A DNA stretch of 64,000 nucleotides, from assembly GCA_017652745.1 (NCBI GenBank), contig JAGCAK010000005.1, forward strand, positions 16,202 to 80,201. Direction: 5' to 3'. This DNA comes from Lachnospiraceae bacterium. GTDB lineage: Bacteria; Bacillota; Clostridia; Lachnospirales; Lachnospiraceae. The position numbers and the translations under genes were made by a program. Shown here piece after piece: positions 42,461 to 48,932 of this stretch (its first letter is position 1; each line of letters opens with the position of its first letter). The notes below the pieces were generated by a model. That model was not told the DNA's origin, did no database searches, and was given only the letters and a program-made list of their open reading frames with translations.

Positions 42461-43516
42461 ATGTATACAAGAGAAAAGACCAAGAAAATAAAAATAGGAA
42501 ATGTCACGATAGGTGGAGGATCTCCGATCGCGATCCAGTCTATGACAAATACCAAAACGGATGATGTGAAATCGACGGTGGAACAGATCCATGCGCTGGA
42601 AGAAGCCGGCTGTGAGATCATCCGTTGTACAGCCAATACACCGGAAGCTGCAAAAGCGTTTCGGGAGATTAAAAAAGAGATATCGATCCCGCTTGTAGCG
42701 GATATCCATTTTGATTATAAACTCGCAATCCTTGCGATGGAAAACGGAGCAGATAAGATCCGGATCAATCCAGGGAATATAGGAAGCAGAGAACGGATCA
42801 AAGCGGTTGTGGACTGCGCAAAAGAACATGCCGTCCCGATCCGTGTAGGTGTTAATTCAGGGTCGCTGGAAAAAGAACTGGTGGAAAAGTATCACGGTGT
42901 TACAGCGGAAGGATTAGCGGAAAGCGCGCTGGATAAGATCAAGATCATTGAAGATCTGGGATATGACAAACTTGTTATCAGCATCAAGAGCAGTGACATC
43001 CTGATATGTGCCAAGGCCCATGAAATCGTGGCTGAGAAAACAAATTATCCTCTTCATGTAGGGATAACAGAATCAGGGACCATTTATTCCGGAAATATCA
43101 AATCTGCTATGGGACTTGCGATGATCCTTTCCAAGGGGATAGGCGATACCATCCGGGTATCATTGACCGGAAGCCCGCTGGAAGAGATTAAAAGCGCAAA
43201 ATATATCCTAAGAAATCTGTGCCTTAGAAAAGAAGGAATCACAGTCATCTCCTGCCCGACATGCGGCAGGACAGAGATTGATCTGATAGGCCTGGCAAAC
43301 CGCGTGGAAGATCTGTGTGCCGGCTATGACCTTTCTATAAAAGTGGCAGTCATGGGATGCGTTGTCAATGGCCCCGGAGAGGCAAAGGAAGCAGATCTGG
43401 GAATTGCCGGCGGTAAGGGAGAAGGCCTTTTGATCAAGCATGGTGAGATCATCCGTAAGATCCCGGAGGCTGAATTCCTTCCAACATTAAAATACGAACT
43501 GGACAACTGGGAATAG
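42461..43516 (+). CDS. ispG: 4-hydroxy-3-methylbut-2-en-1-yl diphosphate synthase (flavodoxin)
   Basis: IQSMTNT, RINPGNIG, and a C-terminal CPTCGR...GCVVNGPGE Fe-S motif. Confidence 0.95.
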   Translation: MYTREKTKKIKIGNVTIGGGSPIAIQSMTNTKTDDVKSTVEQIHALEEAGCEIIRCTANTPEAAKAFREIKKEISIPLVADIHFDYKLAILAMENGADKIRINPGNIGSRERIKAVVDCAKEHAVPIRVGVNSGSLEKELVEKYHGVTAEGLAESALDKIKIIEDLGYDKLVISIKSSDILICAKAHEIVAEKTNYPLHVGITESGTIYSGNIKSAMGLAMILSKGIGDTIRVSLTGSPLEEIKSAKYILRNLCLRKEGITVISCPTCGRTEIDLIGLANRVEDLCAGYDLSIKVAVMGCVVNGPGEAKEADLGIAGGKGEGLLIKHGEIIRKIPEAEFLPTLKYELDNWE

Positions 43517-43517
43517 A

Positions 43518-46500
43518 ATGAAATTTTTTGAGGTTTTTAAAACTTTATCGGTCGGAGAGGAATTGTTTGCTCTGTTTGAAAGTATGGAAGTACTTTCTGT
43601 AACGCAGGTCAAAACAGGGAATTATCTGCGGATCCGTCTGCGGGACGGACATCCTTTGAGCAGCATATCGATCCGACAGATGGAAGAAGCTATCCGCAGA
43701 CAAGTTCTTCAGGAAATGATGTCTGTCAGGATTGAATATGAAAACGGGTATGAATATGCCGAGGTTGGTTCCGGAACCTATGAAAATCCGGAAGATAACC
43801 GGCGCGTTGCGCAGCCAAAAGCTGCTGCTGTTCAGTCATCAGAAGCTGCACCAAAGAGTGCTGCAGGGACAAAAAAGAAATGGACGCAGAAAAGTAAAAA
43901 AACAGATCCGGGAATGATTTATGGCAAAGAATTCCAGGGAGAGCCGATGGAAATCTCGGACTGTATCACTGAGATGCGGAATGTGATCCTGCGCGGCACT
44001 ATTTTTGAAAAAGAACTATCTGTAACGAAAAACAATTTCAAGATACTCAAACTATCTATTACAGACCGTACAGACAGTATCTCTCTGAAAATGTTCCTTA
44101 GGGAAGGTGAAGAAAAACTGCCGGATGCCTTCAAAGAGGGTATGACCATTGAGGTTTGCGGAAATATCGAATACGACAATTTTGAAGGCGAGATCCTGAT
44201 GAACCGTGTGACGGGCATTCGCGAGGGAAAGGATGCAGATGAGGCACGGATGGACAATGCTCCGAAAAAGAGAGTCGAGCTGCATCTGCATACCCAGTAT
44301 TCGGATATGGATGCGCTGACACCGGTGAATGACCTGCTGGATAAAGCTGTGAAATGGGGACATAAGGCAGTTGCCATCACTGATCACGGAGTTGTGCAGG
44401 GTTTTACGGATGCATTCCATAAACTGCAGGCAATGTCAGACCCTGATTTTAAAGTTATTTACGGTGTGGAAGCTTATATCGTGGATGATCTGGATGACCC
44501 GATCGTACAGGATCCGGCTTCACCGGAAGATATTGAATTGCGAAGAGAGAGCGCAATTCCGGATGAGATTCCAAAGGTGATCGATCCGGCAGAAGAAGAG
44601 CGCATTGAGAAAGTAAAAAAAGACAAGTATTATCATGCCATTCTGTTAGCAAAAAACGAAACAGGAAGGCGTAATCTATATCGCCTGGTTTCTTATTCCC
44701 ATATCAATTATTTCAGCCGTCGCCCGCGGATCCCGAAAAGTGTTTTGAATAAATACCGGGAGGGACTGATCCTGGGTTCTGCCTGTGTCATGGGTGAACT
44801 CTATGACGGTATATTAAGCGGGGAAAGTCCGGAACGGATTGCCGAACTGGTTAACTATTATGATTATCTGGAGATCCAGCCGGTTGCAAATAATATGTTC
44901 CTTGTCCGCAATTATGAGCGGAATCATGATCCGCTTTACCGTGCTGCCCATAAAGAAATAAAGGGGCATATGCGTAAAAATGCAGATGAGATCCGCGCGA
45001 TCAATAAACAGATCTATGAGCTGGGACAGCAGTACGGAAAACCGGTCGTGGCAACCGGAGACGTTCATTTCCTGAATCCGGAGGATGAGATCTTAAGACA
45101 TATTATTCTGGACAGTCAGAAATACTCTGACGCGGATGATCCGGGACCGTTTTATTTCCGTACAACGGAAGAAATGCTGCAGGAATTTGATTATCTGGGA
45201 CCAGACATTGCCTATGAGATCGTTGTAGAGAATACCAATAAGATTGCGGACATGATCGAAAAAATAGAGCCGGTAAGGCCGGATAAATGTCCGCCGGTGA
45301 TTGAAAACTCAGATGAGAACCTGAGGTCGATCTGTTATGAAACTGCGCACAGCATGTATGGGCCGGATCTTCCGGAGATCGTGGTAAACAGGCTGGAAAA
45401 GGAACTGAATTCCATTATTTCCAATGGATATTCTGTTATGTATATCATTGCAAGGGAACTGGTGCAAAAAAGCATCAGCGACGGATATCTGGTCGGTTCC
45501 AGAGGTTCTGTCGGTTCTTCTCTGGCAGCTACCATGGCTGGTATAACGGAAGTAAATCCGCTGAAACCGCATTACCGCTGTCCGTCATGCTTTTACAGTG
45601 AGTTTGATTCCGAAGAGGTGGAAGCCTATGCCGGAGGCGCCGGATGTGATATGCCGGATAAATTATGCCCGGTCTGTGGGACGCCGCTGATCAAAGATGG
45701 GTTTGATATTCCGTTTGAAACATTCCTGGGATTTAAAGGAGATAAGGAACCGGATATTGACTTGAACTTCTCCGGTGAGTATCAGTCGCATGCACATGAC
45801 TACACGGAAGTAATTTTCGGAAAAGGGCATACTTTCCGCGCGGGAACTATTTCCACCCTGCAGGATAAGACCGTCTACGGTTATGTGAAGGGGTACTTTG
45901 AACGGCATAACCGTTCCATACGTAAATGTGAGATGAACCGTCTGATCAAAGGTTGTACCGGCGTGAAACGGAGTACCGGTCAGCATCCGGGCGGCATTGT
46001 CGTTCTTCCGCATGGAGAAGAGATATATTCCTTTACACCGGTACAATTCCCTGCAAACGATGCCGGAAAACATACGGTGACAACTCATTTTGAATATCAT
46101 AGTATCGATCACAACCTCTTGAAGCTGGATATCTTAGGGCATGATGATCCAACCATGATCCGTATGCTGGAAGATCTGACAGGTTTTGATGCGAAATCTA
46201 TTAAGCTGGATGATCCTTCAGTCATGAAACTATTTGACGGAACGGAAGTACTGGGAATCACCCCGGAAGATATTGAGCATCCTCTTGGAACCTTGGGTGT
46301 TCCGGAGTTTGGTACCGACTTTGTTATGCAGATGCTTCTGGACACCAAACCGAAAAATTTTTCGGACCTGGTACGTATTGCTGGTCTGTCACATGGAACA
46401 GATGTCTGGCTGGGCAATGCGGAAACACTGGTAAAAGAGGGGAAAGCAACTCTTTCCACATGTATCTGTACACGTGATGATATCATGCTGTATCTGATCT

Positions 46501-47207
46501 CAAAAGGGGTGGACCCTGCGTTATCCTTTGATGTCATGGAAAATGTCCGAAAAGGAAAAGTTGCTTCCGGAAGTGCTAAAAAATGGCCTGAATGGGAAAA
46601 AACCATGAAAGCAAATGGCGTTCCGGACTGGTATCTGTGGTCCTGTACCAAAATACAGTATATGTTCCCGAAAGCACATGCTGTGGCTTATGTTATGATG
46701 GCTTACCGCATCGCTTACTATAAGATATTCTATCCGTTGGAGTATTATGCAGCATTCTTCAGTATTCGTGCAGCTTCTTTTGATTATGAGAAGATGTGTC
46801 AGGGCCTGGACAGACTAAGACAGGAAATGGAGCTGATCAAAGGACGGATCGAAATGGGGACTGCTTCACCAAAGGATCAGGATCTTTTGAAGTATATGTA
46901 TAACGTGGAAGAGATGTATGCAAGGGGATTTGAATTCCTTCCGATCGATATTTATAAAGCAGGAGGCAGCAGGTTCAAGATTTTTGATGGAAAAATAATG
47001 CCGGCCTTTGAAGCAATTGAAGGAATGGGAGAAAAGGCGGCCCGTGCACTGGAAGAAGAAGCTCAAAAAGGGAACTTTACTTCCAGAGAAGATCTGAAGA
47101 TCCGTACCAAACTTTCAAGTACTTTAACAGATAAGTTATACCAGTTAGGAATATTGGGCGATATGCCGGAATCCAGTCAGCTTTCCATTCTGGATTTCCT
47201 GAAATAA
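43518..47207 (+). CDS. polC: PolC-type DNA polymerase III alpha subunit, apparently lacking the intrinsic 3'-5' exonuclease domain
   Basis: PolC N-terminal domain, OB fold, PHP motifs (HLHTQYSDMD, TDHG, GVEAY, YHAILL, GDVHF), GSRGSVGSS, a Zn module CPSC..CPVC, PDIDLNF, and LKLDILGHDDPT. It is 1229 aa against about 1430-1440 aa for characterised PolC. No DEDDh motifs were seen. Confidence 0.9.
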   Translation: MKFFEVFKTLSVGEELFALFESMEVLSVTQVKTGNYLRIRLRDGHPLSSISIRQMEEAIRRQVLQEMMSVRIEYENGYEYAEVGSGTYENPEDNRRVAQPKAAAVQSSEAAPKSAAGTKKKWTQKSKKTDPGMIYGKEFQGEPMEISDCITEMRNVILRGTIFEKELSVTKNNFKILKLSITDRTDSISLKMFLREGEEKLPDAFKEGMTIEVCGNIEYDNFEGEILMNRVTGIREGKDADEARMDNAPKKRVELHLHTQYSDMDALTPVNDLLDKAVKWGHKAVAITDHGVVQGFTDAFHKLQAMSDPDFKVIYGVEAYIVDDLDDPIVQDPASPEDIELRRESAIPDEIPKVIDPAEEERIEKVKKDKYYHAILLAKNETGRRNLYRLVSYSHINYFSRRPRIPKSVLNKYREGLILGSACVMGELYDGILSGESPERIAELVNYYDYLEIQPVANNMFLVRNYERNHDPLYRAAHKEIKGHMRKNADEIRAINKQIYELGQQYGKPVVATGDVHFLNPEDEILRHIILDSQKYSDADDPGPFYFRTTEEMLQEFDYLGPDIAYEIVVENTNKIADMIEKIEPVRPDKCPPVIENSDENLRSICYETAHSMYGPDLPEIVVNRLEKELNSIISNGYSVMYIIARELVQKSISDGYLVGSRGSVGSSLAATMAGITEVNPLKPHYRCPSCFYSEFDSEEVEAYAGGAGCDMPDKLCPVCGTPLIKDGFDIPFETFLGFKGDKEPDIDLNFSGEYQSHAHDYTEVIFGKGHTFRAGTISTLQDKTVYGYVKGYFERHNRSIRKCEMNRLIKGCTGVKRSTGQHPGGIVVLPHGEEIYSFTPVQFPANDAGKHTVTTHFEYHSIDHNLLKLDILGHDDPTMIRMLEDLTGFDAKSIKLDDPSVMKLFDGTEVLGITPEDIEHPLGTLGVPEFGTDFVMQMLLDTKPKNFSDLVRIAGLSHGTDVWLGNAETLVKEGKATLSTCICTRDDIMLYLISKGVDPALSFDVMENVRKGKVASGSAKKWPEWEKTMKANGVPDWYLWSCTKIQYMFPKAHAVAYVMMAYRIAYYKIFYPLEYYAAFFSIRAASFDYEKMCQGLDRLRQEMELIKGRIEMGTASPKDQDLLKYMYNVEEMYARGFEFLPIDIYKAGGSRFKIFDGKIMPAFEAIEGMGEKAARALEEEAQKGNFTSREDLKIRTKLSSTLTDKLYQLGILGDMPESSQLSILDFLK

Positions 47208-47276: not shown

Positions 47277-48071
47277 ATGTTAACGATTGAAAAAGATTTA
47301 TGTATTCAATGCGGTACCTGTGTGGACGAGTGTTTCCAGGACTGTTTGAAATTGGAAGACGGAGAATTGAAATATGATGCGAGCCGCTGCATCTTCTGCG
47401 GACATTGTCTTTCTGTATGCCCAAGAGATGTCATTATGATCGACGGCGATGGATACAATATTGAAGATGTGGAGGAGTTTTCATTCTATGAAAACACGCC
47501 AACACAGTTTGTCAGACGCGATATCATGATGCGGAGGAGCGTTCGCTCCTTTAATGAGGATCCTGTTCCGGAAGAGTATCTGAATCTTATCATCGAAGCA
47601 GCAAAATATGCGCCAACCGCAAAGAACTGCCAGAGAAATGCACTTAAAGTTGTGACAGAACCGGAAGCAGTTGATGCATTGCTGGTTGATATCATGGAAG
47701 AGATCGGAGAGATTGGCAAAGCTAAAATGAGGGAAAACCCGGAGGTAGCTGCTTTCTTCCTGAGTAAATACAGAGAGTTTAACGAGGACAAGGTGGATGG
47801 CCTGTTTTACGGGGCACCGGTTATCATCATGGTCTTTTCCCCAACAGAAGTAGATGGAGCTCTCTGCGCGGCAACCATGGGGCGTATGATCGAAGCAGTT
47901 GGATTAGGCTATTGTTATATCAAACTGGCAGCAGAACCGATGAATACACCGAAACTTCGTCAGAAGTACAACATCCCGGATGATCTGCACTGCGTTCTTG
48001 CGCTGGCTGTCGGACATTATGATGCAGAGTATTTCTGTTCTGTACCTAGAAAAGATCTTCCACTGTTATAG
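47277..48071 (+). CDS. nitroreductase family protein with N-terminal 2x[4Fe-4S] ferredoxin domain
   Basis: CIQCGTCVDEC and CIFCGHCLSVCP, then a nitroreductase-like core (RRSVRSF...). Confidence 0.8.
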   Translation: MLTIEKDLCIQCGTCVDECFQDCLKLEDGELKYDASRCIFCGHCLSVCPRDVIMIDGDGYNIEDVEEFSFYENTPTQFVRRDIMMRRSVRSFNEDPVPEEYLNLIIEAAKYAPTAKNCQRNALKVVTEPEAVDALLVDIMEEIGEIGKAKMRENPEVAAFFLSKYREFNEDKVDGLFYGAPVIIMVFSPTEVDGALCAATMGRMIEAVGLGYCYIKLAAEPMNTPKLRQKYNIPDDLHCVLALAVGHYDAEYFCSVPRKDLPLL

Positions 48072-48082
48072 GATTCATTTTT

Positions 48083-48778
48083 ATGATTTTTGTGACCGGT
48101 GACACCCATCGGCTGATGGATGTCAAAAAAATCGATCTTGAGAACTTCAGTGAACAAACGATGCTGACCCGAAATGATTATCTGATCATTGCGGGAGATT
48201 TCGGCGGGATCTGGACAGGAAATGAAAAAGATGATGCAGTCCTGGACTTTCATGAAAACCGTAATTACACAACACTCTTTGTGGGCGGCAACCATGAAAA
48301 TTATGATGCTCTGGAACGCTATCCGATCGAAGAATGGAACGGCGGAAAAGTACGCCGGATCAGGGAGCACATCCTGTATTTGATGAATGGTCAGATCTTC
48401 ACCATTGATGGGATCCGCTTTTTCATCATGGGCGGGGCTACCAGTGTGGATAAGATCTTCCGCGTTGAAGGAGAAAGCTGGTGGCCACAGGAAGAACCGG
48501 ATAAAGAAGTATTCCAGGAAGCGTTCGATAATCTGGGGAAAATCGGGAATAAGGTTGATTATGTGATCACACATACCATTCCTGAGAAAGTCCGCCGGAC
48601 GGTGTTTGAGGCTTATTCTGATTTTGTGAATTATGACAGCAGTGTGGAACGGTTTCTGGATCTTATTATGGAAAATGTTGTCTTTGAAAAATGGTTTGCA
48701 GGACACATCCATATTGACAGGGAGTTCCCGGAATACCGGCTCAGGATCCTGTATAACGGGGTCGTGAAAATAGGATAA
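48083..48778 (+). CDS. metallophosphoesterase (calcineurin-like)
   Basis: GDTH, GDFGG and GGNHEN motifs. Confidence 0.85.
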   Translation: MIFVTGDTHRLMDVKKIDLENFSEQTMLTRNDYLIIAGDFGGIWTGNEKDDAVLDFHENRNYTTLFVGGNHENYDALERYPIEEWNGGKVRRIREHILYLMNGQIFTIDGIRFFIMGGATSVDKIFRVEGESWWPQEEPDKEVFQEAFDNLGKIGNKVDYVITHTIPEKVRRTVFEAYSDFVNYDSSVERFLDLIMENVVFEKWFAGHIHIDREFPEYRLRILYNGVVKIG

Positions 48779-48901: not shown

Positions 48902-48905
48902 CGCA

Positions 48906-48932
48906 AAAAGTTCCCTTTATGGGAACTTTTTT
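48906..48932 (+). terminator. Rho-independent terminator after tRNA-Glu
   Basis: AAAAGTTCCC / GGGAACTTTT stem followed by TT. Confidence 0.75.

Follow-up and report, generated by a model that had tools for sequence, protein, structure and literature searches.

An exonuclease-less PolC with an intact PHP metal site in a gut and rumen lineage of Lachnospiraceae

The window analysed here, a stretch of 64,000 nucleotides from a Lachnospiraceae bacterium (assembly GCA_017652745.1, contig JAGCAK010000005.1, positions 16,202 to 80,201), contains a polC gene whose product, a PolC-type DNA polymerase III alpha subunit, has no domain of the DnaQ-like 3'-5' exonuclease type. In canonical PolC, a DEDDh exonuclease of this kind, about 200 residues long, interrupts one of the PHP loops and is the hallmark of a typical PolC; in the window protein the two halves of the PHP domain are joined by a linker of 46 residues. 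We refer to PolCs with and without this exonuclease as exo+ and exo-less, respectively. The gene and its parts are listed below together with ispG; residue numbers (aa) are those of the window PolC.

42461..43516, forward strand: ispG, directly upstream of polC (NCBIfam NF001540).
43518..47207, forward strand: polC open reading frame (ORF), exo-less PolC-type DNA polymerase III alpha subunit, 1229 aa (NCBIfam, Pfam and PDB matches).
43983..44204, forward strand: OB fold, aa 156-229, on the N-terminal side of PHP, the usual PolC arrangement (PF01336; aligns to the OB region of Geobacillus kaustophilus (Gka) PolC).
44277..44489, forward strand: N-terminal half of the PHP domain, aa 254-324, with ligands H256, H258, D265, H290 and E318 (PF02811).
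44490..44627, forward strand: acidic, proline-rich linker, aa 325-370 (46 aa), at the canonical exonuclease insertion site (alignments, profile search and structure model).
44628..45077, forward strand: C-terminal half of the PHP domain, aa 371-520, with ligands H373, C423, D515 and H517 (PF02811 and ligand alignment).
45318..46619, forward strand: aa 601-1034, polymerase core comprising palm and fingers, which carries catalytic D746, D748 and D871 and a Zn finger, C688..C720 (PF07733, PF17657).
46926..47165, forward strand: helix-hairpin-helix (HhH) domain, aa 1137-1216 (PF14579).
47178..47198, forward strand: C-terminal clamp-binding-type motif QLSILDF, aa 1221-1227 (comparison of C-termini; putative function, from its position by reference to an entry in Table S1 of Timinskas et al.).

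By every profile tested, the window protein is PolC, which is what a first-pass annotation of this DNA had taken the ORF at 43518-47207 to be. The reading frame is uninterrupted over 1229 aa, and both PolC equivalog models score well above their cut-offs (NF001688 of NCBIfam, 1432.8 bits versus 873; TIGR01405, 1322.7 bits versus 1043); in NCBIfam searches the protein stays far below the cut-offs of the DnaE models. The equivalog matches fall into two stretches, and the second stretch of NF001688 restarts at profile position 607. Pfam domains agree (PF14480 at aa 2-65, PF01336 at aa 156-229, PF02811 at aa 254-448, PF07733, PF17657, and PF14579 at aa 1137-1216) and follow the order of PolC, with the PolC-specific N-terminal domain (NTD) and the OB fold preceding PHP, and the Pol3 core and HhH following it; a DnaE-type C-terminal OB or C-terminal domain is absent from this Pfam layout. 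An AlphaFold2 (AF2) model covering residues 140-1229 (mean predicted local distance difference test score, pLDDT, 83.4) has Gka PolC as its best structural match (3f2b_A, TMt 0.88, 47% identity). Family profile, domain order, catalytic triad, Zn finger, position of the OB fold and genomic slot are all shared with canonical PolC (3F2B, Bacillus subtilis, 9QPC), which differs in carrying the DEDDh exonuclease in its PHP loop.

The loss of the exonuclease from the window PolC is real. With Pfam, no match to PF00929 (RNase_T) was found in the protein even at E<=1. A custom exonuclease hidden Markov model (HMM), built from 26 related exo+ PolCs, matched every exo+ locus with E-values of 1e-83 to 1e-105 and had no match in a six-frame translation of the window, nor in the sequence flanking the exo-less relatives. 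In the alignment with the full-length PolC chain 9qpc_A (1474 aa), a step from chain residue 435 to 634 corresponds to a step in the query of only 329 to 366; across identical alignment columns, members of the exo-less clade described below have 62-76 residues versus 235 in exo+ relatives. GC content and skew are smooth over the deletion junction. The absence of the DnaQ-like insertion, which the first-pass annotation had deduced from the short junction and the missing motifs, is thus borne out by profile and alignment alike. The crystal chain of 3f2b also lacks the exonuclease segment, with the alignment passing from chain residue 185 to 205. We take the segment to have been removed on purpose from that construct, in which case PolC can fold and bind DNA with no exonuclease domain present.

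The linker connects GVEAYIVDD to YYHAILL, and its residues 325-370, LDDPIVQDPASPEDIELRRESAIPDEIPKVIDPAEEERIEKVKKDK, map exactly to nucleotides 44490-44627, just as first described. The AF2 model has it as coil, with pLDDT 63-93, up to a short helix (about aa 357-368) that precedes the YYHAILL strand. P328 and K368 are invariant in the clade and L341, I363, V366 and K367 are conserved in at least 85% of its members. The same type of linker is present throughout the clade, whose members are as little as about 60% identical, so that it must be a long-standing connector under some constraint, in agreement with the earlier view that it had evolved as such and was not a fresh deletion. We also considered the linker as a vestige of the exonuclease domain: MAFFT places its 'DIEL' on the ExoI motif 'DLETTG', but there was no significant match to the exonuclease HMM, and such an origin is not demonstrable.

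The catalytic sites of the remaining domains are intact. All nine PHP ligands (H256, H258, D265, H290, E318, H373, C423, D515 and H517, giving HHDHEHCDH) are present, as the retention of the ligand motifs had been called at first pass, and the window PolC therefore fits the definition of the nine-residue, three-metal PHP motif (PMC12926913, PMC5636811). All exo-less clade members with sequence over these sites keep HHDHEHCDH. The polymerase triad is D746, D748 and D871, and these three aspartates are invariant in 80/80 aligned PolCs; the Zn-finger cysteines are found as CPSC at 688 and CPVC at 717. The extreme C-terminus is altered. Exo+ relatives among the Lachnospiraceae end in the clamp-binding motif QLSLF, of which the window motif QLSILDF retains Q, L and S but not F at position 5, and other members of the clade have QLSIMDF, QMSLSDYF or QISFSDLF. 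Such a change may have altered the affinity for the clamp.

Among protein database matches, 42 clusters of 1199-1283 aa, ranging from 97% down to 60% identity to the window PolC, have no PF00929 match, and from the 43rd match on all are about 1485 aa long and all have PF00929. The short-form clusters come from four independent sources (ENA, NCBI, JGI and Logan assemblies), and the cluster at 97% identity alone comprises 60 member sequences. Genomes were compared using the best 80 loci from species-representative (GTDB) genomes. Eighteen of the GTDB loci carry the short polC; most of them derive from host-associated material, such as ruminant and horse samples, and Parasporobacterium is the label of several; the clade consists of Lachnospiraceae/Parasporobacterium metagenome-assembled genomes (MAGs) within the Clostridia. 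The nearest genome match (L001, 97% identity) is the Lachnospiraceae MAG RGIG5841 from sheep jejunum. Sister assemblies were also checked for an extra ~600 bp at the junction, and share the short form instead. In neighbour-joining trees (1072 columns) the main exo-less clade is monophyletic in 60/60 bootstraps. Mean pairwise identity within it is 0.77 for the polymerase core and 0.68-0.71 for the PHP halves, falling to 0.40 for the linker and 0.32 for the NTD. With the frame intact, the polymerase triad kept and the short form present throughout the clade, the gene is not a pseudogene, in line with the first-pass view that it was no obvious one.

PolC appears to have evolved somewhat faster in connection with this change. 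Distances between exo-less and exo+ PolCs are about 25-30% above expectation from IspG, Dxr and UppS (50-67 loci), and the ratio of PolC to IspG distance is 1.57 between the exo-less and exo+ groups versus about 1.2 within groups, which suggests a modest acceleration associated with loss of the exonuclease.

Several observations concern sequences at the margins of this clade. A second exo-less group (L020, L031, L025, L054 and the cluster representative P0241) has 53-55% identity to the window PolC and different, shorter linkers of about 24-30 aa; it joins the main clade in 24/60 bootstraps and may represent an independent loss within Lachnospiraceae-like bacteria. Three loci labelled Anaerotignum, Treponemataceae and Bacteroidaceae (L011, L012 and L013) are near-identical exo-less polC loci of Lachnospiraceae type, with 66-67% identity to the window, and probably their record labels are wrong or their bins contaminated. 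Finally, the MAG RGIG5612 has two contigs (L002 and L019) with overlapping partial polC copies, 95% and 98% identical to the window, which suggests a mixture of strains in that bin rather than a second paralog.

The order of genes upstream, pyrH-frr-uppS-cdsA-dxr-rseP-ispG-polC, is the canonical Firmicute slot of polC, and a single base separates the ispG stop codon from the start of polC. In 69/81 loci, exo-less and exo+ alike, polC has an IspG ortholog upstream, and three other, unrelated exo-less PolCs occupy the same slot. Because this canonical slot is common to exo-less and exo+ genes, the window gene is an ordinary polC ortholog and not an extra paralog. The first-pass annotation had reported the slot from uppS to polC, which stands and extends upstream to pyrH and frr, but it had also put rimP-nusA-infB directly next; two genes, at 47277-48071 and 48083-48778, lie between polC and rimP. 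Pfam and NCBIfam scans of the roughly 49 ORFs of the 64-kb window found no dnaE and no second polC. Nor was a second polC found in genomes of the exo-less clade among the 80 best loci, although that scan used query-specific 8-mers and is a weak test.

Exo-less PolC is not a new architecture. It was already catalogued in 2014 by Timinskas et al. (NAR 42:1393, PMC3919608), who found that Exo-less PolCs make up 6% of PolCs, have intact PHP sites, are exclusive to Clostridia and Negativicutes save for one extra copy in Thermotogae, and always occur in genomes with both PolC and DnaE1. The window PolC fits this variant in being a member of the PolC group without an Exo domain, from a clostridial host, with an HHDHEHC[D/N]H site; what it adds is a distinct Lachnospiraceae clade with its own linker. 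The entry for Acidaminococcus fermentans in Table S1 of that paper (YP_003399045.1, 1191 aa, NTD+OB+PHP+Pol3+HhH, HHDHEHCDH, set PC+E1) offers the closest comparison we made. Judging from that entry, the two proteins share the same architecture, 9/9 PHP ligands, a putative clamp motif at the C-terminus and an anaerobic Firmicute host. They differ at the junction, which reads GVEGYL-CHSREDKKN-YHIILLA in Acidaminococcus, with about 8 residues, against a partly conserved linker of 46 aa in the window PolC, and in the clamp motif, which is QIELF against the atypical QLSILDF. Since the boundaries of the deletion differ, the loss in the window clade was probably independent. Clade-specific genes downstream also set the window polC apart from that of Acidaminococcus.

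These downstream genes, together with the hairpin that follows them, are listed below.

47277..48071, forward strand: gene for a 2x[4Fe-4S] ferredoxin and nitroreductase-family protein (Fd-nitroreductase), directly 3' of polC (profile match; locus comparison).
48083..48778, forward strand: metallophosphoesterase, 231 aa, with all catalytic motifs, probably the last gene of the operon (PF00149, PHROG 1649).
48905..48931, forward strand: terminator-like hairpin with an 11-bp stem and T-run, closing the unit of polC, Fd-nitroreductase and metallophosphoesterase genes (consensus scan only).

In the main exo-less clade, 15-17 loci have the same two genes after polC (15 for the metallophosphoesterase), versus 0/57 exo+ loci, and the consensus scan found no terminator between polC and them. 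The metallophosphoesterase is absent as a neighbour from four other exo-less polC lineages and from one locus of the second exo-less group (L031). Because it is confined to one exo-less clade and missing from the four other lineages, its arrival counts as a single evolutionary event. Its AF2 model (pLDDT 95.6) matches Dbr1, Rv0805, GpdQ and MPPED2 first, with E-values of 1e-6 to 1e-4, and DP1 and Mre11 only weakly, with E-values of 2e-3 to 1e-2 and TM scores of 0.39-0.47; a PDB sequence search gave faint Dbr1 matches only. A homolog with 49% identity is found in a plasmid-like region with MobA, TraD and BREX nearby (L083 6714-9259, and L084), where the L083 run comprises genes for a metallophosphoesterase, an RNase_T protein (DnaQ-like, 192 aa), a metallophosphoesterase and His_Phos_1.

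The state of the PHP site was also surveyed more widely. Residues 30-1229 of the window PolC were searched against 1.84 billion cluster representatives, and the insert between the PHP halves was measured in the 150 best matches; the classes below are taken from those that reach 1100 aa or more, 135 in all.

Insert of 3-57 aa, no exonuclease HMM match (window PolC included): 24 sequences, PHP site intact in 23.
Insert of 134-182 aa, no exonuclease HMM match: 5 sequences, PHP site intact in 5.
Insert of 185 aa or more (103 of these match the exonuclease HMM): 106 sequences, PHP site intact in 65, or 70 if D/N is allowed.

Exo-less PolCs thus account for about one in five of the nearest PolC cluster representatives (24/135), and the difference in intact PHP sites, 23/24 versus 65-70/106, has a Fisher p of 0.001-0.004. 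Their linkers vary in length and sequence, which suggests repeated losses or a rapid turnover of linkers.

What would replace the missing exonuclease? The first-pass annotation had named the PHP domain acting in cis and an exonuclease acting in trans, and with the PHP site intact at 9/9 ligands these remain the right alternatives for proofreading. We propose that an ancestor of the clade removed nearly the whole DnaQ-like 3'-5' exonuclease from the PHP loop, leaving the 46-aa, mostly unstructured linker. Polymerisation would be unaffected, as nothing of the catalytic triad, the Zn finger, the fingers or HhH is missing, and the PHP domain of PolC itself would edit in cis through its trinuclear-metal site, a suggestion that comes from the ligand sequence. 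The model for such editing is DnaE1 of Mycobacterium tuberculosis (Mtb), and likewise Thermus Pol III alpha, in which the nine-residue PHP site is the exonuclease (PMC5636811). The same work describes the PolC exonuclease as inserted in a PHP loop whose DnaE1 counterpart, of 29 aa, lines a groove guiding the primer end to the site; in the window PolC the 46-aa linker sits at this very loop. Both kinds of polymerase share a nine-residue trinuclear-metal PHP site with no DnaQ domain in the polypeptide, and a long PHP loop at the equivalent position of the fold (29 aa in Mtb DnaE1, 18 in Taq, 46 in the window PolC). They nevertheless belong to different branches of the C family (about 20% identity, TM of about 0.6). 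Unlike DnaE1, the window PolC has its OB fold and NTD at the N-terminus, and its loop is a deletion remnant without sequence homology to the DnaE1 loop. DnaE1, expected in genomes of this kind, may add a second PHP proofreader.

We therefore favour the reading that the window gene is a functional, orthologous exo-less polC of a Parasporobacterium-like gut and rumen lineage that most likely proofreads in cis through PHP, and give it a probability of roughly 55%. Within it, we infer the exonuclease activity of PHP, the presence of DnaE1 and the absence of another polC. A number of points weigh against it. PHP exonuclease activity has been shown for no PolC, and Gka PolC, in which one of the nine ligands is changed whereas the window PolC has all nine, has none (PMC5636811). 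The PHP site is intact in 57/57 exo+ relatives too, and since clostridial PolCs keep it with or without the exonuclease, finding it here does not speak specifically for compensation. Phylogeny likewise confounds the census contrast, since degenerate PHP sites among the exo+ proteins may come mainly from other lineages, such as the Bacilli; PHP domains of Bacilli PolC are described in the literature as often inactive. Lastly, both the altered clamp motif and the faster evolution of PolC could signal that its role has changed or been reduced.

This last point leads to the possibility that PolC in these bacteria has no proofreading at all, with DnaE1 and its own PHP exonuclease as the main accurate replicase and PolC either reduced or specialised, or with a higher error rate tolerated. 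Timinskas et al. raised this for systems with PolC and DnaE1, and also note that there are Clostridia with DnaE1 only and that Exo-less PolCs are all clostridial (PMC3919608). Divergence of PolC across the exonuclease split in excess of IspG, Dxr and UppS, degeneration of the QLSLF motif in the clade, and one exo-less representative (P0347) that has lost the PHP site as well all point the same way. We nonetheless consider it rather unlikely, because polC is full-length, intact and in its canonical operon across a clade diverging to 60% identity, with a polymerase core that keeps 77% mean identity, and because the PHP metal site is invariant there, while a dispensable site should decay, as it has in many exo+ PolCs. 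Editing in trans would instead require a separate nuclease that binds PolC, either a stand-alone DnaQ-type protein or the metallophosphoesterase encoded downstream, in the manner of the Mre11-like DP1 subunit of archaeal PolD. Bacteria commonly encode stand-alone DnaQ homologs, at more than three per proteome (PMC12926913), but searches of the 64-kb window and of 10 kb on either side of the exo-less loci found no DnaQ-like gene. Several observations speak for the metallophosphoesterase: it follows polC only in the exo-less clade among the loci compared and shares a terminator-free unit with it up to a strong hairpin, its catalytic motifs are all invariant, PolD DP1 and Mre11 are among its structural matches, and its homolog on the mobile element adjoins an RNase_T gene. 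Yet the association is a single phylogenetic event in one clade, the other exo-less lineages lack the neighbour, its best folds are not DP1 or Mre11, and homologs elsewhere lie in phage or plasmid contexts. We regard proofreading in trans as unlikely overall, and the specific scenario in which the metallophosphoesterase was recruited, alongside the loss of the DnaQ domain, as a trans editing or accessory nuclease, a DP1-like partner of a C-family replicase, as very improbable; nothing specific links this enzyme to proofreading. The remaining explanation, that the short gene is an assembly or binning error or a pseudogene and that the true polC bears the exonuclease, draws on the fact that the window and its closest relatives are metagenome-assembled and that one of these MAGs (RGIG5612) has two overlapping partial polC contigs. 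It is effectively refuted by the independent assembly of 42 clusters from four sources and 18 GTDB loci, by the uninterrupted frame, smooth composition and conserved linker, and by the same architecture in complete genomes of cultured Acidaminococcus species.

While the window locus reveals no new kind of system, exo-less PolCs are natural experiments on the fidelity of a replicase without its usual proofreader, and they bear on how PolC and DnaE1 share the work of replication in Clostridia. Among the papers we found, none contains a biochemical test of exo-less PolCs. With the PHP site nearly always intact in exo-less PolCs, the census turns PHP-mediated editing by PolC into a concrete hypothesis that can be put to the test.

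The census also turned up two kinds of unusual PolC. Five representatives (P0259, P0267, P0310, P0336 and P0346), and additionally P0254, have inserts of 130-190 aa that the exonuclease HMM does not match, and 9/9 PHP ligands are present in the five aligned; from their sequences, these inserts may be degenerate exonuclease domains, intermediates toward loss. The sole exo-less representative without the PHP metal site, P0347 (1178 aa), reads HRSLE-ADQ at the ligand positions and keeps the DDD triad, which makes it a candidate for a PolC without any proofreader.

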